A program made the position numbers and the translations under genes. Below the pieces are notes generated by a model. The model did no database searches. It had not been told where the DNA came from and was given only the letters and a program-made list of their open reading frames with translations. Below are positions 185-34,233 of a stretch of DNA of 64,000 nucleotides, one piece after another (within the stretch, counting starts at the first letter, position 1; every line of letters begins with the position of its first letter). The stretch lies in contig CAVVEU010000040.1 of assembly GCA_963747235.1 (NCBI GenBank), positions 416,001 to 480,000 on the forward strand. The letters run 5' to 3'. Source of the DNA: an uncultured Candidatus Rokubacteria bacterium (GTDB lineage: Bacteria > Methylomirabilota > Methylomirabilia > Rokubacteriales > CSP1-6).

Positions 185-1141
185 TCAGCGGCGGGCGTGG
201 ATGAACTCGTGCCAGGTGACCCGGTGGCCGCGGAGGAAGTAGCCCATCATCACGAGCACGGCCAGGAGATTGCCCGCCAGGATGGTCCACCAGGGAACCG
301 CCTCCAGCAGCCACTCGGCGAGGATCGCCACCATCGCGGCGAAGAAGACCTCGAAGCAGCAGAGCAGCATGACGAAGGCGAAGAGCAGGCGCGGCTCGCG
401 GTCGGCGAGCGCCAGCATGCCCGCCGCGGCCAGGCCGAAGAGCACGAAGGCGGCGCCGTGGATCACGGTGTACTGCAGCACGAGGGGCATCGTGATCACC
501 AGCGCCCCCGGCTCGCGCAGGCCGTGGAAGAGCGCGGCGCCCAGCAGGGCCGGGGTGCGCAGGGGCACCCCCGCGGCCGCGTCGTAGGCGAGGAACCAGA
601 GCGCGACCGCGACGGCGCCCAGGAGCCCGGCCACGAGACCCTCGCGCACCACGCGCGTCCAGAGCGGCCCCAGCAGGGCGCGCCCGAGCGCGCGGTGGCC
701 GACGAAGAAGTAGATGAGCATGCCGCCGGCGGCGAGCGCGTTGGCGACGAGGATCGCCCACCAGGCGAGCTCGCCGAGCACCGGATGCGCGAGCCACGTC
801 AGCACCGCCAGGAAGAACACCTCGAAGCACATCAGCGCGATGAACAGGATCAGCACGCGGCTCGGCTCGCGCTGGGCCGAGGCGATCAGGTAGGCGATGA
901 GCACGCCGATCAGAGCGAAGACCACCCCGTGCAGCACCGTGTACTGCACCACCAGGCTGGTCGCGGTGGGCACCGCGGCCGGATCCTTCACGCCCTGGAA
1001 CGTGGCGGCGCCGAGCAACGCGGGCGTGCGGAACGGCTGCCCCATCGCCGCGTCGTAGATGAGGAACCAGACCGCCACGAGCGCGGCCCCGATCAGGCCG
1101 GCGATGATCCCTTCGCGAAGGTAGCGGGAATCGGAGGCCAT
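185..1141 (-). CDS. Polytopic membrane protein with internal two-fold duplication
   Basis: Hydrophobic 318 aa; REGIIAGLIGAALVAVWFLIYDAAMGQPFRTPALLGAA recurs as REGLVAGLLGAVAVALWFLAYDAAAGVPLRTPALLGAA; GGGAGG RBS. Confidence 0.85.
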   Translation of the reverse strand: MASDSRYLREGIIAGLIGAALVAVWFLIYDAAMGQPFRTPALLGAATFQGVKDPAAVPTATSLVVQYTVLHGVVFALIGVLIAYLIASAQREPSRVLILFIALMCFEVFFLAVLTWLAHPVLGELAWWAILVANALAAGGMLIYFFVGHRALGRALLGPLWTRVVREGLVAGLLGAVAVALWFLAYDAAAGVPLRTPALLGAALFHGLREPGALVITMPLVLQYTVIHGAAFVLFGLAAAGMLALADREPRLLFAFVMLLCCFEVFFAAMVAILAEWLLEAVPWWTILAGNLLAVLVMMGYFLRGHRVTWHEFIHARR

Positions 1142-1252
1142 GGGGACCCTCCCTTCCGATCTGGATCTGCTGATGCGAGCGCGACCGATCCAGACCTGAC
1201 CTCAGCGGTACCACCAACCGGTACCGAGAGCAAGCCGGCCCCGCCGGGAGCG

Positions 1253-2389
1253 TCAGGCGATCGCGAGCGCCTTCAGCAGATCCGCGCCGAAGAGGCCCAC
1301 GCGCCAGTCGCGCACGCCCTCGACCTGTCGCAGCGCGGCAAGATCGGCGGGCGGGGCCGCGGCGAGCCGGTCGATGAGGCGCTGGGGAAAGAGCACGCCC
1401 GGATCGAGGCCGATCTCCTTCGAGGCCTTGGTGCGCCACTCGCGCAGCGCCTCCCCGCGCCTCCGCTGGGCCGCGGGCACGTGGGGCCGCGGGGTCGGGC
1501 GGTAGGCGGGCAGCTCCGCGTCGGGCAGCGCGAGCGCGCGCGTGATCGCCTCGAGGATGGCGGGCCCGGCGCGCCGTACCACCGGCGGCGTGCAGCCCGG
1601 CACCGCCAGGATGCCCTCCGCGTCCAGGGGCCGGCGGGCCGCGAGCACGACGAGGCTCTCGTTGCCCACGATCATGAACGGCGGGCGATCGAGCCGCAGC
1701 GCCAGCGTCTCGCGCGCGGCGTACAGCTCGCGCAGCACCGCGAGCCCGCGCGCGTCCAGCTCGCGCGCGCCCTTGATCTTCATGTACGCGTCGGGGTCCA
1801 CCGGCTTCTCGGGCACCACCAGCGCGGCGAGCCCGGCGCATTCCTCCTCCACCCACTGCGCGCGCCCGATCGCGTCGAGGGCTTCCAGCAGGCGCTCGCG
1901 CAGCGGGATGAGATGGAGCACGTCGTCGAGGGCGTAGGCCTCCTGGTCCGCGGTGAGCGGCCGCCGGGACCAGTCGTCCTTCTGGCGCGACTTCACCGCG
2001 GTGACGCCGAGGTACTGGGTGAGCAGCCCCTCGAGCCCGAGCGCGGGCGCGCCGAGGAAGCGGGCCGCGACCGCGGTGTCGAAGAGCGAGGCCACCGACA
2101 CTCCGTACAGGCGCTTGAGGTAGGCCAGATCGTTGTCGGCAGCGTGCAGCACCTTGAGCGTGCCCGGATCGGCCAGCGCCGGCCCCAGCGGCGAGAGATC
2201 GCGCAGCGCGAGTGGATCCACGAGGTGCCCGCGTCCGCGCTCGTCGGCGATCTGCACCAGGCAGAGCTTGCCCGGGTAGTGATGCAGGCTGTCGGCCTCG
2301 GTGTCGATGGCCAGGGCCCCCGCGCCTTCGAGCTGGCGGGCCAGGGCCTGCAGGTCGTCAGGGGTCCGGATCCAGAGGGGAAGCGGCAT
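1253..2389 (-). CDS. rnd: Ribonuclease D (DEDDy 3'-5' exonuclease with HRDC domains)
   Basis: [43 protein letters not shown] motifs; C-terminal HRDC-like region. Confidence 0.9.
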
Positions 2390-22586: not shown

Positions 22587-24116
22587 TCAGACGCGCGACG
22601 CGCGCCCGGCCCAGTAGGGCTCGCGGAGCTGGCGCTTGAGCAGCTTGCCCGCCGCGTCGCGCGGGAAGACGTCGTGGAAGGAGACCTCGCGGGGCACCTT
22701 GTAGCCGGCCATGTGCTCCCGGCAGAACGCGCTGATCGCCTCGGCGGTCAGGGTCTCCCCGGGGCGCACGTGGAGGGCGGCGTGCACGCGCTCGCCCCAC
22801 TCGTCGTCGGGCACCCCGAAGACGGCCGCGTCGAGCACCTTGGGGTGACGGTGCAGCACGTCCTCGATCTCGGCCGGGTAGATGTTGACGCCCGCCGAGA
22901 TGATCATGTCGCGCTTGCGGTCGCAGATGTAGTAGAAGCCGTCCGCGTCCACGTAGGCCACGTCGCCCACCGTGTACCAGTCGCCCCGGCGCATCTTCTC
23001 GGTCGCGTCGGGATCGCGGTAGTACTCGTCGAGGATGCCGGGGAACCGGCGCACGTAGAGCTCGCCCGGCTCGCCGGTCGGCACCGGCCGGCCGTCGTCG
23101 TCGAGCAGCGCGATCTCCTTGCCCGGCGCCGCGCGCCCGCAGGAGCCCGGCTTGCGCAGCACGTCCTCGGGCCGCAGCACCGTGTTCACCCCGAGCTCGC
23201 TCGAGCCGTAGAACTCGTAGAGCGCGGGCCCGAAGTGCGCCACCACGCCCTCCTTCACGCGCATCGGGCACGGCGCCGCCGCCACGATGATGGCGCGCAT
23301 CGAGGACACGTCGTAGCGCGCCCGCACCGCCGCGGGCAGGTCCACGATGCGCTTGAGCAGGGTCGGAGCCATGAAGGTGCTCGTGCAGCGGTGCCGCTCG
23401 ATCTCGGCCAGCGCCTGCTCCGGATCGAACTTCGGCATGATGACCACGGTGCCGCCGACCAGGTGCGTGTAGAGCGCGAACCCGCCCGGCGCCGAGTGGT
23501 ACATGGGGCCGGCCACCAGGTGCACATGGGCCGGATCGAGCAGGTCCATGGCTCCCAGCGTGTCCATCAAGTCTTGGGGATTGATCCCGCGCCGCAGGGC
23601 CCCCTTGGGCTTCCCGGTGGTCCCGCCGGTATAGATGATGGACGCGCCGAAGCCCTCGCCCCCCCGGGGCTCCACCGGATCGGGCCGTCCCGCGGCCAGC
23701 AGGTCGTCCACGTGCACGCCCCAGGGCCGGCGCGCCGACCCCAGCAGGATCCACTGCCGCACCTTCCTGGCCTGGGCGCGGATGGCCTCGACCACGGGCA
23801 GGAAGCGATCGCTCACCAGCACCGCGACCGCGTCGGAGTGCTCGAGGATGTAGAGCGCCTCCTCGGCCACGAGGCGGTGATTCATCGGCGCCGGGATCAA
23901 CCCCGCCGCGCGCGCGGCGACGCCGGCCAGGTAGTGCTCCAGCGAGTTCTCCGCGTAGACGATGACGTGGCCGCCGGGCGGCAGGCCCAGGCCGATGAGG
24001 CCGTGGGCCAGCCGGTTGCGCCGGGCGACGAGCTCGGCCCAGCTCCAGGCGCGCTCGCCTTCGAGGAGAGCCGGCTTCTCGGGATGCCGGGCGGCGTGCG
24101 CGGCGAGAACGTCCAT
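22587..24116 (-). CDS. Acyl-CoA synthetase (AMP-binding)
   Basis: YTGGTTGKPKG, YEFYGSSE, TVGDVAY, DRKRDMIISAGVNIYP, GKLLKRQLR. Confidence 0.92.
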   Translation of the reverse strand: MDVLAAHAARHPEKPALLEGERAWSWAELVARRNRLAHGLIGLGLPPGGHVIVYAENSLEHYLAGVAARAAGLIPAPMNHRLVAEEALYILEHSDAVAVLVSDRFLPVVEAIRAQARKVRQWILLGSARRPWGVHVDDLLAAGRPDPVEPRGGEGFGASIIYTGGTTGKPKGALRRGINPQDLMDTLGAMDLLDPAHVHLVAGPMYHSAPGGFALYTHLVGGTVVIMPKFDPEQALAEIERHRCTSTFMAPTLLKRIVDLPAAVRARYDVSSMRAIIVAAAPCPMRVKEGVVAHFGPALYEFYGSSELGVNTVLRPEDVLRKPGSCGRAAPGKEIALLDDDGRPVPTGEPGELYVRRFPGILDEYYRDPDATEKMRRGDWYTVGDVAYVDADGFYYICDRKRDMIISAGVNIYPAEIEDVLHRHPKVLDAAVFGVPDDEWGERVHAALHVRPGETLTAEAISAFCREHMAGYKVPREVSFHDVFPRDAAGKLLKRQLREPYWAGRASRV

Positions 24117-24231
24117 CGCTTCCGCGTGTGTAGCATGAATCGGGCGGGGGCGGCAACCGATGGGCGCTTCACACGCGCCCCCGGTCGGTGTCACAATGGC
24201 GTGGGCTCCATCACAGCGAGGGAGGATGCCC

Positions 24232-24690
24232 ATGGCGGCGGATCGATCGTACGTGGCGGAGAACCAGGCGCAGCTCGAGCGGCTCCGCGCCCTCATCGAC
24301 AAGCTGAGCGACCAGCAGCTCGCCGGGCCGATGGAGGCGGGCTGGACGGTGGCCGGCGTCCTGGCCCACCTCGCCTTCTGGGACGAGCGGATCGTGACCC
24401 TGCATCGACGCGCTGGGACGGAGGACGCGGCACTCCGCCGCCGGGCTACGACGAGGCGGGGGTGGACTGGATCAACGACGCGGGCAAGCCGCTCTGCCTG
24501 GCGCTGCCGCCGCGGGTCGCCGCGCGGATGGCGGTGGAGGCGGCGGTCGCCGCGGACGAGCGGCGTGGCCGGCCTGTCGGAGGCGCAGCTCGCGGCGAAC
24601 GCGGCCGCGGGCAGCCCGATCAGCGTGCTGCGCGCCGAGCACCGGCGCGAGCACCTGGACGAGATCGAGCACATCCTGGCGCGCCGCTAG
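24232..24690 (+). CDS. DinB/maleylpyruvate-isomerase-like protein, compensating indels ~24405 and ~24560
   Basis: GGAGG RBS; GWTVAGVLAHLAFWD ... EHRREHLDEIE His motifs. Confidence 0.7.
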   Translation: MAADRSYVAENQAQLERLRALIDKLSDQQLAGPMEAGWTVAGVLAHLAFWDERIVTLHRRAGTEDAALRRRATTRRGWTGSTTRASRSAWRCRRGSPRGWRWRRRSPRTSGVAGLSEAQLAANAAAGSPISVLRAEHRREHLDEIEHILARR

Positions 24691-24773
24691 CGGCGGGCCG
24701 GGACGCGAGGCCTACCAGCCGGTAACCGCACTCGTCAGCCGGACTACCGGGCGATCGACCGACCTGATGCGAC

Positions 24774-25676
24774 TTACCAGCCCGCGTAGATCCCCTCGCG
24801 GGTGGTGGGCGCGGTCCCGCGCGTCTGGTCCCACTGCTTCTGCATCAGGATCTGGTAGAGGCCGATCGAGCCGGTCGCGAAGGCCGCCGACGAGCACGTG
24901 AGGTAGAGGAGCCAGGTCCGGTAGACCTGCTCGCCCACGATCGCGCGCGCCTCGTCCGCGCGGGCCTTGAGACGCTCCGCCCACTGCCGGCACGTGCGCG
25001 CGTAGTGCGGCCGCAGGTTCTCCAGATCGAGCAGCTCCCAGCCCGCCCGCTCCATCTCGGTGAGCGTCTCGGTCACGCCGGAGAGATCGCCGTTGGGGAA
25101 GACGTGGCGATAGAGGAAGTCGGTCTGGCTGGTGCGCTTCCAGTGGAACTCGTGGTGGATGCCGTGGTTGAGGTAGAGGCCCCCGTCCACCAGCATCTCC
25201 TTCACCCGCGCGAAGAACGACGGGTAGTTCGGGATGCCCACGTGCTCGATCACCCCGATGGCCGCGACCTTGTCGTAGCGCGCGTCCGCGGGCAGGTCCC
25301 GCACGTCGCGGTACTCGACGAGGCACCGGTCCTCGAGCCCTTCCCGCTTGATCCGCGCGGTCGCCCACTCCGCCTGCGCCCTGGAGAGCGTGACCCCGTG
25401 GGCGCGGACGCCGTAGTGCTGGGCGGCCCAGATGCTGAAGCCGCCCCAGCCGCAGCCGATGTCGAGCACCCGCTCGCCCGGCTGCAGTCGCAGCTTCCGG
25501 CAGACCAGGTCGAGCTTGTCCTCCTGCGCCTGCTCGAGCTTGCCGTCCGCGTCGCGGTAGTACGCGCACGTGTAGACCATCAGCGGGTCCAGGAACAGCG
25601 CGTAGAAGTCATTCGAGACGTCGTAGTGATGCGCGATCGATCGGGCGTCGTGATCCTTGGATCGAGCCTGTGTCAT
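24774..25676 (-). CDS. cfa: Cyclopropane-fatty-acyl-phospholipid synthase family methyltransferase (catalytic domain only)
   Basis: IAHHYDVSNDFY, YTCAYY, AQEDKLD, LDIGCGWG, IEHVG, HYARTC; lacks the N-terminal domain. Confidence 0.9.
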   Translation of the reverse strand: MTQARSKDHDARSIAHHYDVSNDFYALFLDPLMVYTCAYYRDADGKLEQAQEDKLDLVCRKLRLQPGERVLDIGCGWGGFSIWAAQHYGVRAHGVTLSRAQAEWATARIKREGLEDRCLVEYRDVRDLPADARYDKVAAIGVIEHVGIPNYPSFFARVKEMLVDGGLYLNHGIHHEFHWKRTSQTDFLYRHVFPNGDLSGVTETLTEMERAGWELLDLENLRPHYARTCRQWAERLKARADEARAIVGEQVYRTWLLYLTCSSAAFATGSIGLYQILMQKQWDQTRGTAPTTREGIYAGW

Positions 25677-26797
25677 GGCGCCACCTCTCGCATGCCGAAG
25701 ATGGAATCGAACACGATCCGTCGCCGCGCCGCCTCCGAGCCCAGGACCACCCGCACCCCGAGCCGGGCCAGCGCGTCGGGGAGATTCGAGAGCTTCCGCT
25801 GGAGCCAGCCGGCCTCACCGGGGCCATAGCGCGCCACGATCTCCCGCGCATAGCCGTCGAGCGGCGTGCCCTGGCGAATGAGCGCCGTCACGGCCGCCGC
25901 GGCCAGCCGGCCGCTCCGGATGGCGGGCCCGATCCCCTCGCCCGACAGGTCGCGGGCGAGCCCGGCCGCATCGCCGATGAGGCAGAACCGGCGGCCAGCC
26001 AGGCGCCGGGGCGCCTGCCGCCGCACCACGTACGCGTGCCCCTTGAACGGCTCGAGCGGGATCCCGTCCGGCAGGCGGCCCGACGCGCGCAAGCTCGCCA
26101 TCAGCGCGTCGCGCCGCCGGGGCAGGCTACCGTCGCCGCCCTGGGTGCAGCCGACGCCGATATTGATGAAGTCGCGCTTCGGGAAGTACCAGCCGTAGCC
26201 GCGCAGGTCGGGCTCGATGTAGAGCTCGGGCGCGTGCAGGAACGGCTCGAGGCGCGCGACCCACTCGGGCGGCAGCCGCGTTTCGCTCTCCTGCGCCACC
26301 ACGACCTCCTCGCGCCCGGAGACCTGCCCGAGCACGCGCGCCACCGGGCAGCGATGGCCGCCCGCGCCGATCACCACCGGCGCTTCGAAGGCCCCGCGAT
26401 CGGTCTCGACCCGGACCCGGTCCGCCTGCTCGGCCACGTCGGTCACCCGGACGCCCCAGCGCACGTCCGCCCCCGCGGCCGCGGCCCGCTCGAGCAGATA
26501 GTGATCGAACTCGCGGCGGATGATGCCGTAGCTGGTGGGCCGGCGCCAGCCCGTCTCGTGCCGGGCCCCCGCGAACTCCAGCACGCACTGGTCGAACGGC
26601 TGGATGGTCCTCGGGTACTTGTCGGGGTCCACCTCGAGGTCGACGAGCGCTTCCGGGGTCACCCAGCCCGCGCAGATCTTCACCCGCGGGAAGACCGCCG
26701 CGTCGAGCACGAGGGGGCGCAGGCCCGCCAGGGCCAGCCGCCAGGCCGCGGTGCTCCCGCCCGGCCCGCCCCCGACCACGATCGCGTCGTAACTCAT
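25673..26797 (-). CDS. Geranylgeranyl-reductase-family FAD-dependent oxidoreductase
   Basis: IVVGGGPGGS, FPRVKICAG, RREFDHYL, GYGWYFPK, IGDAAG..SGEGIGPAIRSG. Confidence 0.88.
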   Translation of the reverse strand: MSYDAIVVGGGPGGSTAAWRLALAGLRPLVLDAAVFPRVKICAGWVTPEALVDLEVDPDKYPRTIQPFDQCVLEFAGARHETGWRRPTSYGIIRREFDHYLLERAAAAGADVRWGVRVTDVAEQADRVRVETDRGAFEAPVVIGAGGHRCPVARVLGQVSGREEVVVAQESETRLPPEWVARLEPFLHAPELYIEPDLRGYGWYFPKRDFINIGVGCTQGGDGSLPRRRDALMASLRASGRLPDGIPLEPFKGHAYVVRRQAPRRLAGRRFCLIGDAAGLARDLSGEGIGPAIRSGRLAAAAVTALIRQGTPLDGYAREIVARYGPGEAGWLQRKLSNLPDALARLGVRVVLGSEAARRRIVFDSIFGMREVAP

Positions 26798-27144
26798 CAC
26801 CGCCTCCACAGCGACAGCAAGATCGACAACTTCTGGAGCGGCGTCACCTTCAGGTCCTCGACCACGTTGGCCACGTCCATCGCCCGGAACAGGTCGCCTT
26901 CCAGGTCGATCCGGCTCTGCACGTAGGCCTCGGCGAAATTGTACGGCGAAGGGTCCCGGATCAGGGCCAGGAACGTTTCCGGGCTCTTGATGACCGCGAT
27001 GCACTCGGGCCGGTCCGAGCCGAAGCGCACCTCCTGGCCGTCCCAGAGCCGGAAGGCGAACGCGGCGGGCAGGCTCCCGAAGACCCGTCGCAGGATCGCG
27101 GCGGCCCGGGCGGGAGTCGGGGTGGGGGTCAGGAAGGCCAGCAT
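26797..27144 (-). CDS. Stand-alone CFA-synthase N-terminal (lipid-binding-like) domain protein
   Basis: FAFRLWDG...PSPYNFAEAYVQSRIDLEGDL resembles the CFA N-terminal 'LGEAY..G.ID.EGD' motif; TGATG overlaps at both ends. Confidence 0.75.
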   Translation of the reverse strand: MLAFLTPTPTPARAAAILRRVFGSLPAAFAFRLWDGQEVRFGSDRPECIAVIKSPETFLALIRDPSPYNFAEAYVQSRIDLEGDLFRAMDVANVVEDLKVTPLQKLSILLSLWRR

Positions 27145-27863
27145 CACCCGCGGAGGGTCTTCATGACGTCGGGGTTCTCGAACGCACGCCTGGGCTCTCC
27201 TTCGAAGATGATCTCGCCGCGGTCGATAGCATACAACCGATCGGCCACCCGGGAGGCGGTCATCAAATTGGACTCGGCGATCAGGAGGGAGATGCCCATG
27301 GCCTTGATTTGCTTGACCGCGTCGATGAACCGGCTCACCACCACCGGGGCCAGCCCCTCGAACGGCTCGTCCAGCAGCAGGATGGACGGCGAGAGCGTCA
27401 TGGCCCGGCCGATCGCCACCATCTTCTTCTGGCCACCCGACAGGAAGAGCCCCCGCCGGCCCGTGAAATCGCCGATCTCGGGGAAGAGCCTCAGCACGCG
27501 CTCGTCGATGCCGTTGCCCGCCAGCACCGCGCCCCCCTTCCCGGCGGACCGGGCGAGCGACTGGCTGATGCGGAAATTCTCCGCGACGGTCAGATCGGGG
27601 AAGATCCCCGCGTCCTCCGGCGAGTAGCCGATGCCCGCGAGCGCCCGCCGATGCGTGGGCAGCTTCGTGATGTCGCGGCCCCCGAGGGCGACCCGGCCGC
27701 TGCGCACGGGCAGCAGGCCCATGATGCCGTCGATGGTGGTCGTCTTGCCCGCGCCGTTGCGCCCGACCAGGCAGACCGATTCGCGGTCCCCGACGGTCAG
27801 CGAGAGGTTCCGCAGCACCTGGGCGGGCCCGCGGAAGACGTTCAGCCCCTCGAGCTCGAGCAT
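27144..27863 (-). CDS. livF: Liv-type ABC ATPase LivF-like
   Basis: [27 protein letters not shown]. Confidence 0.9.
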   Translation of the reverse strand: MLELEGLNVFRGPAQVLRNLSLTVGDRESVCLVGRNGAGKTTTIDGIMGLLPVRSGRVALGGRDITKLPTHRRALAGIGYSPEDAGIFPDLTVAENFRISQSLARSAGKGGAVLAGNGIDERVLRLFPEIGDFTGRRGLFLSGGQKKMVAIGRAMTLSPSILLLDEPFEGLAPVVVSRFIDAVKQIKAMGISLLIAESNLMTASRVADRLYAIDRGEIIFEGEPRRAFENPDVMKTLRG

Positions 27864-27867
27864 TCGG

Positions 27868-28620
27868 TCAGGCGGTCGGGGCGCCGAGCAGGTTGGCGGT
27901 CACCTGGGGGTGGTTCCGGATCTGGTCCGGCGTGCCGTCGGCCAGGATGGCGCCCTGGTGCATGGCCACGATCCGGGGGCAATAGGTGAAGACCACGTCC
28001 ATGTCGTGCTCGACGATGACCGCGGTGATGCCGCCCGAGCGGACCACCGCGGTGATGATGTCCATGATCGGCGCCTTCTCGCGCGTGCTGACCCCGCTGG
28101 TCGGCTCGTCCAGGAAGAGGAGCTTGGGCCGGAGCGCGTAGGCCACCGCCACGTCGAGCAGCTTGCGCTCGCCCTGGGACAGGCCGCCCGCGGGCGACCC
28201 GGTGCGGGCGTCGAGCCCGAACTGCTTGAGCACCGCCACCGCCTCGTCCCGCACCGCGGTGTCGGCGGCGGCCAGCCTGAACAACCGCCGCGTGCGCCCT
28301 TCGCGGGAGAAGATGGCCAGCGTCACGTTGTCGTGCACGCTCAGCTGGTCGAACAGGTTGACGAGCTGGAAGCTGCGCGCGATCCCGAGCTCGATCTTGT
28401 GGTGGATGGAGGCCCGCGTGATGTCGGCCCCCTGGAACTCGATGCGGCCGGAGTCGGGCGGGATGAGCCCGCTGATCAGGTTGATCAGGGTCGTCTTCCC
28501 CGCGCCGTTGGAGCCGATGAGGGCCAGCACCTCGCCCGCGGTCACCGTGAAGTCCACGTGGTCCACCGCGTGGGTCTCCCCGAAGGACTTGCTGAGCTGG
28601 GTGGTCTTGAGGATGTCCAC
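27868..28620 (-). CDS. livG: Liv-type ABC ATPase LivG-like
   Basis: GSNGAGKTT, IARSFQ, LFLDEPTSG, VEHDMD. Confidence 0.88.
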   Translation of the reverse strand: MDILKTTQLSKSFGETHAVDHVDFTVTAGEVLALIGSNGAGKTTLINLISGLIPPDSGRIEFQGADITRASIHHKIELGIARSFQLVNLFDQLSVHDNVTLAIFSREGRTRRLFRLAAADTAVRDEAVAVLKQFGLDARTGSPAGGLSQGERKLLDVAVAYALRPKLLFLDEPTSGVSTREKAPIMDIITAVVRSGGITAVIVEHDMDVVFTYCPRIVAMHQGAILADGTPDQIRNHPQVTANLLGAPTA

Positions 28621-28622
28621 GC

Positions 28623-29597
28623 TCAGGCCGCCTTGGCCGGGCGCACCGCGAAGCGCCGCACGGTCCCCACGATCCCCGCGGGCAGTGCCAGCACCAGCAC
28701 CACCAGCACGATGCCCAGCACCATCTGCCAGTACACGGTGTGGCCCACCGCGTAGGTCTCGAGGTAGTTGAAGATGATCGCGCCGATGATCGGGCCGAAG
28801 AAGGTCTGGAAACCGCCCAGCACCGTGAAGAAGACCATCTTGCCCGAGAAGGTCCAGTGCAGGATGTCGGGGGTGGTGAGCCCGTTGAGCGGCACCCACA
28901 GCGCGCCGGCCAGCCCGGTGAAGATCCCGGAGATCAGGAAGGCCACCCAGCGGTAGTGCCAGACCTGCACGCCCACGAACTCGGCGCGCGTCTCGTTGTC
29001 GCGGATCGCCTGGAGCGCCTTGCCGAAGGGGGAGTGCACGATGACCCACATCACGGCCACGCAGACCACGAAGACCGCGAGGACGTAGAAGTAGTACCGG
29101 TGGGAGAGGAACTCGAACTTGTCGCCGCCCGCCCGCACGAATCCGCCGAGCAGGGTGGGCGTCGGCACGCGGAGGCCGTCGCTGCCGCCGGTCACCCAGA
29201 AGAACTTGAACGCGAGGCTCCACAGCACCTGCGACAGCGCCATCGTGAGAATGCCGAAGAAGATCTTGGTGTAGCGCACGCAGAGCAGCCCGAAGAGCGC
29301 GGCCACCGCTCCCGAGGCGAGGATGCCGGCCAGGAGGAAGGCCTCCATGGACTCGAGCTTGAGGTACTTGACGGTGAAGGCCACCGCGTAGGCGCCCATG
29401 CCGAAGTAGGCGGAGTGGCCGAAGGACAGCAGGCCGGTGTAGCCCAGCAGCAGGTTGAAGCCGAGCGCGGCGATCGCGAAGACCAGGCCGTAGGTGAGCA
29501 GCACGGTCTGGTACGGGGGCACCACGTACGGCAGGACGATCAGCGCGAGCAGCACCGGCGCCGACCAGGTGAGCACGCGGCGCGGCGGCCCCGTCAT
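28623..29597 (-). CDS. livM: Liv-type ABC permease LivM-like
   Basis: GFNLLLGYTGLLSFGHSAYFG, SPFGKALQAIRDNE. Confidence 0.9.
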   Translation of the reverse strand: MTGPPRRVLTWSAPVLLALIVLPYVVPPYQTVLLTYGLVFAIAALGFNLLLGYTGLLSFGHSAYFGMGAYAVAFTVKYLKLESMEAFLLAGILASGAVAALFGLLCVRYTKIFFGILTMALSQVLWSLAFKFFWVTGGSDGLRVPTPTLLGGFVRAGGDKFEFLSHRYYFYVLAVFVVCVAVMWVIVHSPFGKALQAIRDNETRAEFVGVQVWHYRWVAFLISGIFTGLAGALWVPLNGLTTPDILHWTFSGKMVFFTVLGGFQTFFGPIIGAIIFNYLETYAVGHTVYWQMVLGIVLVVLVLALPAGIVGTVRRFAVRPAKAA

Positions 29598-29620
29598 GGG
29601 CCTGGCTCATGCCTGGGCCT

Positions 29621-30503
29621 TCATGCGCGGCCCAGGATCCCCGCGGGACGGATCATGAGCACGGCCGCCGCCATCAGGTAGAGCACGGCCAGCTCGACCT
29701 CCGGGAAGAACGTGATGCCGGCCTCGCGCACGAAGCCCACCATGAGCGCGCCGATCAGCGCGCCCTCGAGGCTGCCGAGCCCGCCGATGACCACCACCAC
29801 GAACGCGAGGATCAGCGCGTCCACCCCCATGCCGAGCACCGCGCCCTGCTGGGGCACGATCACCGACCCGCCGAGGCCCGCCATGAAGCAGCCGAGCGTG
29901 AAGGCCTGCACGTAGACGCGGTTGACGTTGACGCCGAGGGCGGAGGCCATGCGCATGTTCTGGGACGTGGCGCGCAGCACGACGCCGAACTGGGTGCGAT
30001 AGACGAAGGCCCAGAGCCCGGCGGCCGCGACCCCGCCGATGACGATCACCACCAGGTTGTAGGTCGGGTAGATGGACTCGCCGAAGGTGAGGCTGCCGAG
30101 GCCCTCGTAGAGCGCGCTCGCCTGCAGCGGATAGGGGCCCCAGATGAGCCGCATGAGGTCTTCCAGGATCAGGAGCAGGCCGAAGGTGATGAGGAGCTGA
30201 TACTCCTCCGCGCGGCGATAGAGCGGCCGCAGCAGCGTGGGCTCGAGCACCGCGCCCAGCGCGGCGGCGGCGATCGCGCCGACCGGCAGGAGCGCGTACA
30301 TCCAGATGCTGGCCTCGGTGGCGCCGCCGAGCGCGCGTGCCCACCGCCCACGCGGTCACGTAGGCGCCGAAGGCGTAGAGGTTGCCGTGCGCGAGATTGA
30401 CGATGCGCATGACCCCGTAGATCAGGCTCAACCCGCCCGCGATCAGGAACATCACCGACGCGTAGAGGAGCGCGTTGAGGACGTGGACGACCAGGGTGTC
30501 CAT
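29621..30503 (-). CDS. livH: Liv-type ABC permease LivH-like, indel near 30335
   Basis: GLSLIYGVMRIVNLAHG in one frame; VIGGLGSLEGA, RPAGILG in the next. Confidence 0.85.
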
Positions 30504-30526
30504 GGGCCCCGATAAGATGCCCTAGT

Positions 30527-32740
30527 TCATGGGGCGGCATCAACCCGGAACTGCGCGGTCGCCACTTCCGGGCCGACGAGGTTGTCGCCCAGGGCCAGCG
30601 CCACCAGGGCCGTGTAGGCGCCCGGCCTGAGCCGGCCCTTGAGATCCACGATCAGGCGATGGGCCTGCACGTCGCGGGACACCCCGGCGGCGGCCACCGT
30701 GCCGTCGGCGCCCAGGATCACGTAGCGGCAGGCGGGCAGATCGGGGCGCTCCTCCTCGCCGCGGGAGCCCAGCGGCTCGCGGACGAGGCGGTACTCCCGG
30801 AGGAACTTCTCCAGCCGCTCGATCTCCGGCACGATCTCGAGGCGGTCGCCCCGCGCGGTGATGCGCGTAACGTAGGCACGCCGCGGGATCGCGAAGCGAT
30901 CGTAGCTGCCGACGCCGAGCGGGTTGTTCATGTCCCGGAAGACGCCGAGCACGACCGCCCCGTCGGTCCACTTCTCGAGCTGGTAGGGCCCGTTCGTGAC
31001 CAGGTAGTGCCCCCGGCGCTGGGCGAACTGGCGGAGCGCGGCCCAGCGGGCCTGCGCCTCGTCGGCCGCCACCAGCCGCTTGAGCGCCTCCGGGACGTAG
31101 TTCTGGCGCGCGAGGCCGTCCAGGATCGCGCCGAGCTCCTCGCGCGTCTTCGGGTCGCGCGCGAGATCGAGCCAGCGCACCCCGCGCCGGCGCGCCTCGG
31201 CCGCCGAGAACGCGCCGACGCCCCGCTTGACCGCTTCCTCCATCAGCACCATCACGTGCCAGGGCGTGGCGCTCCAGGGCGGCGCCAGCGCGGCCAGCTC
31301 CGCGGTGTCCGCGGTGGCCGCGTTGAGGTAGACCTCCACCACCGGCACCACGTAGGTGAACGTGATGTCGCTGTAGCGCCGCACCTCGCTGTCCACCTTC
31401 ACCAGCCGCACGCCGACGAGGGCCTGGCGCGCGGTCTCGGTGGCCGCCTCGACCGCGGGATCGTGCTCGACGTGGCCGGGCGCGCGCCGGGCGCTCCAGC
31501 GCGCGGCGAAGATGTACGGATAGAGCGCGTCGGCGGCCGAGACGCGCGTGTTGTCGTGGGCCGCCGAGCCCCAGAGGCGATAGGTCACGCGGGCCTTCGC
31601 GGTCTTCCCCTTCCCCACCGGCAGCAGCGCGCCGGTCCCGGCCTCCGGCAGCAGCGCGTCCTCGGGGATCTCGAAGCCCGACGGGCCCGCCACCGCGACC
31701 TGGGCGGGCACCGCGCGATGGGGAATGAACCCGGCCGCGTAGGGGGCCGGGATCAGGCCGGGATCGCCGACCGCGGCCCAGAGCAGCCGCCCGGGCGCGT
31801 CGGTGAAGCCCGCGACCGGATTCCAGGCCGCGGTGGCGCGCCCGGCCACGCCGACCTTGAGCCACCCGTTCCACGGAAAATCCTTGAGCTTGGCGGTGCG
31901 CACGAAGATCTCGGAGTTGAAGCCCCGCTGGGAATCCCAGCCGATGTTCTCGATGCCCTGCGAGAACTCCGAGTTGAAGGGCTCGCGCCGCACCGTGTAG
32001 CCCAGCACGGGCCGCTCGCACCCGGCCGCGAGCCGCTGGACGAGCCGGCGCTCGAGCTCCGCGCGCTCCGCCGCGCCGTCGTAGGCGAACGTGGTGAGGC
32101 GCCGGTAGAGGCCCTCGACGGCCTGGCGGGCGGCCGGGTCCGTGATGGCGGGCGCCTGGAGCAGGTAGGCGTGAAACCATCCCTCCTTGAGCCAGGGCGG
32201 CGCGAAGGTGCCGCCCGCGCCGATCGCGTGCGCGGCCAGCAGGCCCTGGAGGTCCACCTCCTCGACGGTCACCGGCCGGGACGGCGGGCCCGCGGGTGCC
32301 GTCTCGACGGCCTTGCGCGCGGCCTGGGCGAGATCCCAGTGCTGGAGATAGTCCGCGTGATAGGGCGTGATCGCGTACGGATGCGCGACGTGACCGGCGC
32401 GCGGACCGCCCAGGCTCTTGCCGGCACGCGAGGCGGCGGCGCAGCGGGCCGGGGCGTCGGCCGGCGCCGGGTTGAACCGCGCGACCAGGTAGCCCCCGAG
32501 CGAGTCCACGGAGGTGACGTGGGCCGGGAGCCGGCCGCCCGCGAAGGGATCGCCGCCGACATAGGCGTGCAGCGTGCCGTTGCGCAGGAGCGGCACCGCG
32601 GCGGCCGGGGAGAGCGCCTCGATGCGGATCTCCTGCGGGTAGTAGCCGGGATAGAACGGCAGCTCGTGCCCGGCGCGCGCGGGAGGCGCGCCGCCGGCGA
32701 ACACGAGCATCAACGCAACGGCGAGACCGCGGGTGAACAC
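30527..32740 (-). CDS. Large (~737 aa) periplasmic protein, divergent family-5 (OppA-like) binding protein
   Basis: GTG start and signal peptide (VFTRGLAVALMLVFAGGAPPARA); WNPVAGFTD, TNGPYQLEKW reminiscent of SBP_bac_5. Confidence 0.65.
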   Translation of the reverse strand: MFTRGLAVALMLVFAGGAPPARAGHELPFYPGYYPQEIRIEALSPAAAVPLLRNGTLHAYVGGDPFAGGRLPAHVTSVDSLGGYLVARFNPAPADAPARCAAASRAGKSLGGPRAGHVAHPYAITPYHADYLQHWDLAQAARKAVETAPAGPPSRPVTVEEVDLQGLLAAHAIGAGGTFAPPWLKEGWFHAYLLQAPAITDPAARQAVEGLYRRLTTFAYDGAAERAELERRLVQRLAAGCERPVLGYTVRREPFNSEFSQGIENIGWDSQRGFNSEIFVRTAKLKDFPWNGWLKVGVAGRATAAWNPVAGFTDAPGRLLWAAVGDPGLIPAPYAAGFIPHRAVPAQVAVAGPSGFEIPEDALLPEAGTGALLPVGKGKTAKARVTYRLWGSAAHDNTRVSAADALYPYIFAARWSARRAPGHVEHDPAVEAATETARQALVGVRLVKVDSEVRRYSDITFTYVVPVVEVYLNAATADTAELAALAPPWSATPWHVMVLMEEAVKRGVGAFSAAEARRRGVRWLDLARDPKTREELGAILDGLARQNYVPEALKRLVAADEAQARWAALRQFAQRRGHYLVTNGPYQLEKWTDGAVVLGVFRDMNNPLGVGSYDRFAIPRRAYVTRITARGDRLEIVPEIERLEKFLREYRLVREPLGSRGEEERPDLPACRYVILGADGTVAAAGVSRDVQAHRLIVDLKGRLRPGAYTALVALALGDNLVGPEVATAQFRVDAAP

Positions 32741-32745
32741 AGGAG

Positions 32746-32833
32746 CCCCCTCACCCCGGCCCTCTCCCCGACGGGGAGAGGGGGCAGCGAGACTCCCTCT
32801 CCCCCGCGAGGGGGAGAGGGCAGGGTGAGGGGG
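32746..32833. repeat. REP-like composite palindrome (CCCCTCACCC..CCTCTCCCC family)
   Basis: CCCCCTCACCCCGGCCCTCTCCCC...GGGGAGAGGG..CCCTCTCCCCC..GGGGGAGAGGGCAGGGTGAGGGGG. Confidence 0.85.
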
Positions 32834-32847
32834 CGTGTCCGTGTGAC

Positions 32848-34233
32848 CTAGGCCTTCATCTGCGGCCAGGTCTTGTCGATCCAGGTATACGTGGAGGTCG
32901 GCTCCCCCTTCGGCCAGCCGGGAGGCGCCGTGATGTTGCGGATCGGGATCGTGATGATGCGGGTCGGATCCAGGATCTGGAACGGATAGTCGGGCGAGTT
33001 CATGCTGAAGCCCGTCATCGCGTCCTTGTAGCCCTGGTGCGTATCGGGCCGGATGTACACGTAGCCGGCGGGCCCGGCGTGCATCGCGCCCTCGAGCTGG
33101 CTGATGATCGCGTCGTCGTCCGGCCAGCCGCCCATCAGCTTGTTGGCCTTCTCGACCGCGGTCTTCAGCATGTACAGCGTCGAGTACGCGCCCTCCGACT
33201 GGAAGTTCGGATACTCCTTCCACCGGTCGAAGTACTTCTTCACGAACTCGGTGTTGAGCGGCCAGCGATTGTTCGGCGGGTAGTTGAAGTAGTAGTTGGA
33301 GTGCACGCCCGCGATCGCGCCCTCGGGATGATCCTTGCCGATCGCGTGCGGGGCCACTCCGAAGGCGATGGTGGAGGCGAACTTCATCTTCTTGAACATG
33401 TCGTAGCGGAGCGCCTGCTTGTACATGGCCACGTAGTCGCCGCCCCACACCGAGGACACCAGGAGGTCCGGCTTCGACGAGATGGCCTTGGTGATGTGGG
33501 AGGTGAAGTCGGTGGTCCCGAGCTTGGGCCAGCCCTCCGACACCACCTGGGCCCCCGGCACCATCTTCTTCATCACGATGTTGAAGTGGTCGAAGGCGTT
33601 CCGCCCGTAGGAGTAATCGGGATGGATGTGGGCGACCCGCTTGATCTGTTTGCCCCACGTCATGGCCGCGGCGACCGCGCAGGTGACGCCGTCGGCCGAC
33701 TGGATATTGGTGATGCGGAAGATGTAGTGCGGGTTCGGCACCGCCTTGTCGAAGAGAAAGTCGGTGCAGCCGTCCACGAAGATGGTGAGCAGCTTCAGCT
33801 CCTCGGCCACCGGCCCGAGCGCGGGCGTGTTGCCGCTCGAGATGACCCCGGTGAAGAGGTCGACCTTCTCCGACAGCTTGAGCCGCCGCATCTCCTTCAC
33901 GTTGGCGTCGGTGCCCGCGTTCTCGTCGGCCTTGAACGTCTCGATCTTGCGCTTGCCGAGCAGGCCGCCCTGCGCATTGATCTCCTCCGCGGCGAGCGTG
34001 TGCCCCTTGAAGGAGGGCTCGCCCAGCACCGCGGCGGCGCCGGTGAAGAAGGTCATGTGGGCGATCTTGTACGGCGTGTCCGGGATCGTGCCCTTGGGCT
34101 GCGCGTGCGCTTGCGAGATCAGCGGCACGGCGGCGAGGGGTACGCCGGCGGCGGTGGCGGCGCCGGCGGCGGCGGTGCCGACGGTCACGCCCAGACGGGC
34201 CAGGAAATCTCGACGGCTCACTTCTTGGGTCAT
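32848..34233 (-). CDS. Liv-type ABC substrate-binding protein with Tat signal
   Basis: MTQEVSRRDFL twin-arginine motif; EINAQGGLLG, PDYSYGR, DFTSHITK; GAGGAGG RBS. Confidence 0.88.
   Translation of the reverse strand: MTQEVSRRDFLARLGVTVGTAAAGAATAAGVPLAAVPLISQAHAQPKGTIPDTPYKIAHMTFFTGAAAVLGEPSFKGHTLAAEEINAQGGLLGKRKIETFKADENAGTDANVKEMRRLKLSEKVDLFTGVISSGNTPALGPVAEELKLLTIFVDGCTDFLFDKAVPNPHYIFRITNIQSADGVTCAVAAAMTWGKQIKRVAHIHPDYSYGRNAFDHFNIVMKKMVPGAQVVSEGWPKLGTTDFTSHITKAISSKPDLLVSSVWGGDYVAMYKQALRYDMFKKMKFASTIAFGVAPHAIGKDHPEGAIAGVHSNYYFNYPPNNRWPLNTEFVKKYFDRWKEYPNFQSEGAYSTLYMLKTAVEKANKLMGGWPDDDAIISQLEGAMHAGPAGYVYIRPDTHQGYKDAMTGFSMNSPDYPFQILDPTRIITIPIRNITAPPGWPKGEPTSTYTWIDKTWPQMKA

Follow-up and report, generated by a model that had tools for sequence, protein, structure and literature searches.

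The closest known counterpart of the genes reported here is the tmpBA operon, which pairs a methylase resembling cyclopropane fatty acid (CFA) synthase with a flavoprotein resembling geranylgeranyl reductase (GGR) in 10-methyl-palmitate producers of the genera Desulfobacter, Desulfobacula, Marinobacter and Thiohalospira (Blitzblau et al. 2021, PMC7791843). In that report, TmpB led to 10-methylene-palmitate in Escherichia coli for four of five operons, and TmpA is presented as a GGR-like putative reductase. The bfaAB (tmsAB) genes of actinomycetes, which belong to the tuberculostearic acid pathway, follow the same proposed logic of methylenation and then flavin-dependent reduction; however, BfaA comes from a different flavoprotein family, uses reduced nicotinamide adenine dinucleotide phosphate (NADPH), stands in another gene order and has no meaningful homology to TmpA (PMC7791843). 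Here, we describe three adjoining genes on the minus strand of a 64,000-nucleotide stretch of DNA (G000:C40:416001-480000, hereafter the window) from a Rokubacteria metagenome-assembled genome (MAG) of 5.57 Mb (88% complete, ~71% G+C). In this triad, a gene for a GGR-family flavoprotein lies between two genes that encode the separate halves of a CFA-synthase-like methylase, and we consider it reasonably probable that the unit is a rearranged, split version of the tmp-type ten-methyl-palmitate pathway.

Two methylase halves and the flavoprotein between them

The product of the first gene (here called TmpB-N, the N protein) passed the Pfam model DUF7884 (PF25371) with 32.6 bits against a cut-off of 27, and covered positions 5-80 of the 393-position NCBIfam CfaB model NF040703. 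Positions 96-393 of the same model were covered, with 330 bits, by the product of the third gene (TmpB-C, the C protein). Because the two proteins map to separate parts of one model, they are complementary halves of one enzyme. The C protein also matched Pfam CMAS (PF02353) over profile positions 2-273 of 273 (306.2 bits, cut-off 27) and aligned with residues ~109-378 of the full-length CFA synthases 7qos, 5z9o and 6bqc, its best sequence matches in PDB. The glycine-rich S-adenosylmethionine (SAM)-binding motif DIGCGWG was found in its translation. When an AlphaFold2 (AF2) model of the N protein (predicted local distance difference test, pLDDT, 80.8) was used in a fold search, the first match was 7qos_A, the Aquifex CFA synthase (E 1.5e-4), followed by SCP2 proteins and the L. 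acidophilus CFA synthase 5z9o. Searches of PDB with the N sequence, singly and as a 20-row profile, gave chance-level matches only, and the link of this protein to CFA N-domains rests on Pfam, NCBIfam and fold.

In the two fused relatives that were scanned, DUF7884 stands directly N-terminal to CMAS in one chain. The window departs from this single-chain plan of the phospholipid-acting CFA synthases, since N is a separate gene, two genes upstream of C. Standalone homologues of the N protein numbered 569, with lengths of 63-202 amino acids (aa); among the 120 listed, all were of 113-139 aa and most of exactly 115 aa. A search of longer proteins for fused N relatives found no close fused form, which is weak evidence, and its two matches, with PF00005 and PF07505, are probably miscalled frames.

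The position of the break was located by alignment with E. coli Cfa, whose row was taken from locus L154. The HYD of the C protein (residues 17-19) aligned with E. coli residues 119-121, so that the C protein starts at about E. coli residue 103. According to PMC9851988, which cites Hari et al. 2018, residues 100-120 of E. coli Cfa are a disordered inter-domain linker, and the N and C domains of that enzyme remain associated through purification as separate polypeptides. As aligned, the methylase break falls at the start of the inter-domain linker. Since the linker is disordered and the E. coli halves associate, a natural cut at this place would, by analogy, be compatible with a working two-chain enzyme in Rokubacteria. 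E. coli Cfa has in common with the methylase of the window the two-domain plan, the catalytic-site residues and the linker position, but it is one chain, forms a cyclopropane ring, has no partner reductase and has an N-domain that is not recognised by DUF7884.

The protein encoded between the two halves (hereafter the reductase) passed TIGR02032, the geranylgeranyl reductase family, over model positions 1-297 of 297 (178.6 bits, cut-off 158.8), and its sequence aligned end to end with the T. acidophilum GGR 3oz2. The top folds for its AF2 model (pLDDT 89.0) were 3oz2 (E 5e-26) and the Sulfolobus GGR 3atq, both with a TMq of 0.79. In an alignment of 23 relatives, F36, P37, R38, K40 and C42-A43-G44-W45 were invariant, C42 lying within KICAGW, as were G144-G147, P151 and G275-A281; the segment GYGWYFPKRDFINIGVG holds the likewise invariant G200, Y201, W203, F205, K207, N212, G214 and G216. 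A Cys near the flavin (CAGW) and a motif of the YxWxFP...GxG or GYxWxF type are what we take, from the GGR structure papers, to be hallmarks of the family, and both features are present here alongside the family-model and fold matches. The reductase shares its fold, TIGR02032 membership, flavin adenine dinucleotide (FAD) motifs and conserved Cys motif with the archaeal GGRs (3oz2 and S. acidocaldarius 3atq), although the identity is ~18-20%; its genomic partner is a fatty-acid methylase, unlike the isoprenoid lipid synthesis genes of the archaeal enzymes. At this locus the flavoprotein adjoining the methylase is thus of the GGR family and not of the BfaA type, a genome-wide search for BfaA not having been made. 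Co-folding of the N and C proteins with the reductase as partner gave scores of 0.00 and 0.20 against a mark of 0.32, which speaks neither for nor against binding.

An earlier sequence-only reading of this DNA had proposed three minus-strand genes with TGATG and ATGA overlaps, which encode a 115-aa protein like the CFA-synthase N-domain, a GGR-family flavoenzyme and a catalytic protein with an intact SAM motif. Translation and direct reading of the sequence confirmed three open reading frames (ORFs) head to tail with overlapping stop and start codons. The view of the small protein as a detached N-domain is borne out by DUF7884, the CfaB model, the fold and the fused relatives; the SAM motif was seen as stated; and the family of the flavoenzyme is upheld by TIGR02032 and by the fold match to 3oz2 and 3atq. 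A lipid-binding role for the free N-domain appears plausible by analogy.

Conservation of the triad and its kinship to tmpBA

A scan for relatives of the reductase, restricted to one genome per species, yielded 69 loci. The N, reductase and C genes were all present, in that order and on one strand, in 60 of them; seven were truncated where the contig or locus stops (L020, L045, L052, L058, L059, L061 and L072), and two were not orthologues (L077, at 35% identity, and L078, a 31-aa fragment). Kept in identical order at 60 of the 69 loci, the triad is far beyond chance, which answers affirmatively the question, raised by the sequence-only reading, of whether the synteny is kept elsewhere. The carriers are Rokubacteria plus one Binatia-labelled genome, the closest loci being labelled Rokubacteria, Rokuibacteriota or Methylomirabilota; the most distant triad is the Binatia-labelled one (L074), with 34, 54 and 61% identity in N, reductase and C, respectively. 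The other neighbours (liv genes and DinB-like, acyl-CoA-synthetase-like and cyclase genes) are common to close relatives only, and the triad was therefore regarded as the conserved unit. Inclusion of the liv ABC-transporter genes in this unit was considered and rejected, since a livF orthologue (at least 78% identity) lies upstream in only 21 of the 69 loci.

In a survey of 251 genomes of the phylum, 164 had some match at E <= 1e-20. By hand count, orthologues of at least ~62% identity occur in roughly 96 of the 158 genomes of the window's own family, and outside that family there was one clear orthologue case (G227). These tallies include two genomes flagged as unpublished (G217 and G076), and no conclusion rests on either. 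Nine loci (L012, L014, L015, L016, L021, L035, L061, L066 and L068), with 74-93% identity to the reductase and full synteny with the Rokubacteria triad, bear titles from other phyla or from archaea (Acidoferrum, Nitrosotalea, Nitrosocosmicus, Verrucomicrobiia, Limnocylindria, Dormiibacterota, Planctomycetota and Deferrimicrobiaceae), and we regard them as MAG contigs that were probably mis-binned or mislabelled.

Parts of all three genes were covered by metatranscriptome contigs from four libraries of three studies (X15-X18), which are 90-97% alike and come from relatives of the window's strain. The junction of reductase and C was bridged by X15 record 3, X17 record 19 and X18 record 27, and that of N and reductase by X15 record 7. 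As DNA can be present in libraries of this kind, and as two genes on one contig are no proof of a single transcript, these contigs are a weak hint only.

Kinship to tmpBA was assessed in 400 genomes of the class Gammaproteobacteria around G251, a Woeseiaceae-labelled genome flagged as unpublished, whose only uses here were to centre the sample, to count among the positives and to supply an outgroup row (L120) of the reductase tree. Relatives of the reductase, 37-49% identical, were found in 47 of the 400 (E <= 1e-30). At 27 of 30 inspected loci, a CMAS gene (a frame of 410-491 aa) immediately preceded the reductase gene on the same strand, as in the tmpBA layout, and the N protein also matched within the same CMAS frame in 12 of these 27. 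One of the 30 (L151) had no CMAS found within the locus. A further arrangement, a 120-aa N, a 296-aa C and then a 384-aa reductase, was seen in L124 (G445) and L125 (G604), whose N/C boundaries are like those of the window. Among the loci examined, these two are the closest non-Rokubacteria relatives, with 48-50% identity in methylase and reductase. They share the split point of the window and fall in one clade with its methylase and its reductase; unlike in the window, C precedes the reductase, and their N proteins lie below the DUF7884 threshold. Public proteins identical to their reductases are named Thiohalorhabdus, a cultured genus, and those identical to the fused-type reductases are named Sulfuriflexus, Sulfurivermis and an Ectothiorhodospiraceae bacterium; in every case the annotation goes no further than 'NAD(P)/FAD-dependent oxidoreductase'. 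No relevant paper came up when the literature was searched for fatty-acid profiles of Thiohalorhabdus. The acid 10Me16:0 is reportedly present in this group.

A methylase tree of 45 rows was built by a quick method. All split forms constituted one clade (Shimodaira-Hasegawa-like approximate likelihood ratio test, SH-aLRT, 100), within which the N-reductase-C order (14 rows, 96) and the N-C-reductase order (2 rows, 98) were each recovered. The split clade was sister to 27 fused forms (93). E. coli Cfa and a paralogue from the window's own genome fell outside the joint GGR-linked clade, on long branches that drew a warning from the tool. The reductase tree agreed (N-reductase-C 80, N-C-reductase 99). 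Read most simply, these trees, which do not fix the root or the direction of change, would point to a single split, after which the gene order changed. The paralogue is a full-length CFA-like gene of 387 aa (L002 1153..2316, plus strand, on G000:C13; CMAS 201 bits). It reads S/E/Q/M/Y at E. coli positions 139, 239, 266, 268 and 317, which puts S, Q and M in place of C139, H266 and I268, and it sits on a very long branch of the methylase tree.

Collectively, the triad has in common with tmpBA a CFA-like methylase adjoining a GGR-like flavoprotein, the presence of DUF7884 and CMAS, and matching reductase motifs. CAGW, GDAAGL and SGEGI are invariant in the 23-row reductase alignment; in the five TmpA sequences of the PMC7791843 supplement, inspected by eye, CAGW and GDAAGL are found in all five and SGEGI in two. 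The tmpBA layout of a single-chain tmpB followed by tmpA is not that of the window, in which three genes stand in the order N, reductase, C, the methylase is made up of a 115-aa and a 300-aa chain, and the genome is that of an uncultured member of the Rokubacteria. Identity of the window's proteins to the fused tmpBA-layout forms is only 35-44%.

Two side observations concern the tmp genes. By eye, the TmpB N-termini of Desulfobacter and Desulfobacula in the same supplement resemble the E. coli-type Cfa N-domain, and those of Marinobacter and Thiohalospira resemble the DUF7884 type of the window (PMC7791843), so that the published tmp set may combine two methylase lineages. At a gammaproteobacterial tmpBA-type locus (L128 2745..3926, plus strand), a PLD-like (PLDc_2), cardiolipin-synthase-like gene follows the reductase, which hints at a wider membrane-lipid remodelling cluster there.

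Neither a split methylase nor the N-reductase-C order was found described in the literature searched, which left subscription journals mostly outside, and searches combining Rokubacteria with cyclopropane, or tmpA/tmpB with 10-methyl, returned no paper on the triad besides PMC7791843. The sequence-only reading had offered a pathway with an unrelated reductase. Its pairing of a methylase with a GGR-type enzyme stands; its novelty does not, because tmpBA is already in print (PMC7791843). What is new is the split of the methylase, the reductase gene between the halves and the phylum.

Candidate chemistry and its rivals

The reading that we favour, and hold to be moderately likely, is tmp-type methylenation and reduction by a two-chain methylase and a GGR-type ene-reductase, which would yield mid-chain methyl-branched acyl lipids. 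The SCP2-like N protein (115 aa) and the catalytic C protein (300 aa) would associate into a two-chain CFA-synthase-like methylase. With SAM as methyl donor, this methylase would methylate a cis double bond in the acyl chain of a phospholipid, freeing an exomethylene intermediate, and the GGR-family flavoprotein would then reduce the exomethylene C=C to a saturated methyl branch, presumably in mid-chain. The overlapping stop and start codons would couple translation of the N, reductase and C chains. The earlier proposal of methylenation followed by reduction is retained here as the best chemical reading, with both the methylene chemistry and the reductase activity predicted. A bolder version, in which the free N protein would be the shared lipid-handling subunit of a three-protein methylase-reductase machine, presenting the acyl chain to C and then to the reductase, and in which Rokubacteria would be an unrecognised source of 10-methyl-type fatty acids, seems to us doubtful.

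Several points weigh against the favoured reading. E. coli positions C139, E239, H266, I268 and Y317, which we take to be the bicarbonate ligands of E. coli Cfa (the letters in the E. coli sequence agree), are all kept in the aligned C protein. Because C keeps every one of these presumed ligands of a cyclopropane-forming enzyme, its sequence would also allow a cyclopropane product. The joint GGR-linked clade has an SH-aLRT of just 83 in a quick tree, and, judged by identity alone, C resembles the fused TmpB-like genes (35-41%) no more than it does E. coli Cfa (37%). No lipid data are on record for Rokubacteria. The alignments and trees leave out the TmpA and TmpB sequences of PMC7791843 itself, and in that report TmpA failed to yield a reduced product in both E. 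coli and yeast.

A last point concerns Methylomirabilis, which is reported to contain 10MeC16:0 (PMC6581649) and to which the sequence-only reading had tied the triad. Two genomes of family f13, a family of small genomes, carry pmoA (G053 and G054, 319-326 bits) and were therefore regarded as Methylomirabilis-like methanotrophs. Neither of these two contained the triad, and their sole reductase relative was 32-33% identical. The best CMAS (PF02353) matches in G053 and G054 scored 38.9 and 32.6 bits, which indicates no strong CFA-synthase-family gene in either. Since such a gene is lacking in both, neither a bfa-type nor a tmp-type pair explains, in these two genomes, the 10-methyl route of Methylomirabilis, and the proposed link was abandoned. 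The CMAS match in G053 is a 297-aa methyltransferase adjoining a type III polyketide synthase-like ORF, ~570 kb from the GGR paralogue (locus L110, G053:C1:596080-599736; ORFs 1480..2373, plus strand, and 197..1222, minus strand).

The rival that survives best is that the methylase is an ordinary cyclopropane fatty acid synthase, split, and that the GGR protein is co-regulated with it for an unrelated or loosely related job, for example saturation of polyprenyl or quinone side chains. We give this a small probability. In addition to the retained ligand positions, it draws on the fact that the best PDB sequence matches of C are true cyclopropane synthases and, by model names, on the menaquinone and bacteriochlorophyll side-chain reductases within the GGR family. 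Seven fused relatives, however, keep the same five positions, as do the split methylases of Gammaproteobacteria and the homologue labelled Binatia, and the named members of the fused TmpB-like proteins make a methylene and not a ring (PMC7791843). Furthermore, the linkage of reductase and methylase spans three phylum labels and three gene orders, so that chance or mere co-regulation explains it poorly, and the genome has the separate full-length CFA-synthase-like gene of L002.

Slightly less probable, in our judgement, is that the methylase yields a methylene or allylic methyl-olefin lipid with which the pathway ends or which is processed in another way, the flavoprotein being an isomerase, desaturase or oxygenase. 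Furan fatty acid synthesis pairs flavoenzymes with CFA-like methylases. The reductase model has flavin halogenases and hydroxylases among its close structural neighbours, and the failure of TmpA to give a reduced product in either host is in keeping with this rival. Against it, the archaeal GGRs 3oz2 and 3atq are the best matches over the whole length, by sequence as well as by fold; the TIGR02032 cut-off is passed; and the CAGW Cys and the GYxWxF-type motif, the presumed GGR hallmarks, are invariant. In addition, the tmpBA organisms contain saturated 10Me16 acid (PMC7791843).

An isoprenoid substrate, with a CMAS-like C-methyltransferase methylating a prenyl double bond and a GGR-like enzyme saturating the chain, is very improbable: GGR-family enzymes classically act on prenyl chains and the C protein weakly matches geranyl diphosphate 2-C-methyltransferase models, but C scores 330 bits to CfaB versus 47.5 bits to the geranyl diphosphate methyltransferase model, the N-domain is of the type specific to phospholipid-acting CFA synthases, and the named homologues act on C14-C18 monoenoic acyl chains (PMC7791843).

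Surroundings of the triad and its meaning

The coordinates of the triad, of its junctions and of the gene upstream are collected in Table 1. Directly upstream of the triad, and overlapping the N start codon, a liv-type ABC transporter set occupies 27144..33658 on the minus strand; it contains two ATPases, ORFs that resemble permeases and a large ORF that resembles a substrate-binding protein, and its adjacency to the triad is kept in close relatives only. Scanning positions 24000-34000 for promoters and terminators yielded no usable result.

Table 1. Positions within the window of the three genes, the overlapping codons and the adjoining transporter gene.
Feature	Position	Strand	Details
N gene (TmpB-N)	26797..27144	-	115 aa, ATG at 27144; SCP2-like, DUF7884
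Reductase gene	25673..26797	-	374 aa, ATG at 26797; GGR-family FAD protein, TmpA-like putative lipid ene-reductase
C gene (TmpB-C)	24774..25676	-	300 aa; CMAS domain, catalytic SAM-methyltransferase half
TGATG overlap, N stop/reductase start	26795..26799	-	TGA 26799-26797 shares its A with ATG 26797-26795
ATGA overlap, reductase stop/C start	25673..25676	-	TGA 25675-25673 within ATGA; ATG 25676-25674
TGATG overlap, livF-like ABC ATPase stop/N start	27142..27146	-	livF stop 27146-27144; read directly from sequence
livF-like ABC ATPase, upstream of N gene	27144..27863	-	PF00005

Given that the GGR-type half of the tmp pathway is still putative, the triad bears on the finishing step of 10-methyl-palmitate formation outside actinomycetes. 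It provides independent comparative evidence that the methylase and the reductase belong together, for their linkage outlasts both a gene split and differing gene orders under three phylum labels. It also offers a CFA-synthase-type enzyme that occurs naturally as two chains, cut where the E. coli linker lies, which helps to dissect the role of the N-domain. The tempting connection to Methylomirabilis is removed, the two methanotrophic Methylomirabilis-like genomes checked being without the triad. Soil ecologists routinely count 10-methyl fatty acids as a marker of actinomycetes or sulfate reducers. Through the triad, a phylum that is uncultured and abundant in soil becomes a candidate producer of mid-chain methyl-branched lipids, which would bear on how these fatty acids are read as biomarkers.

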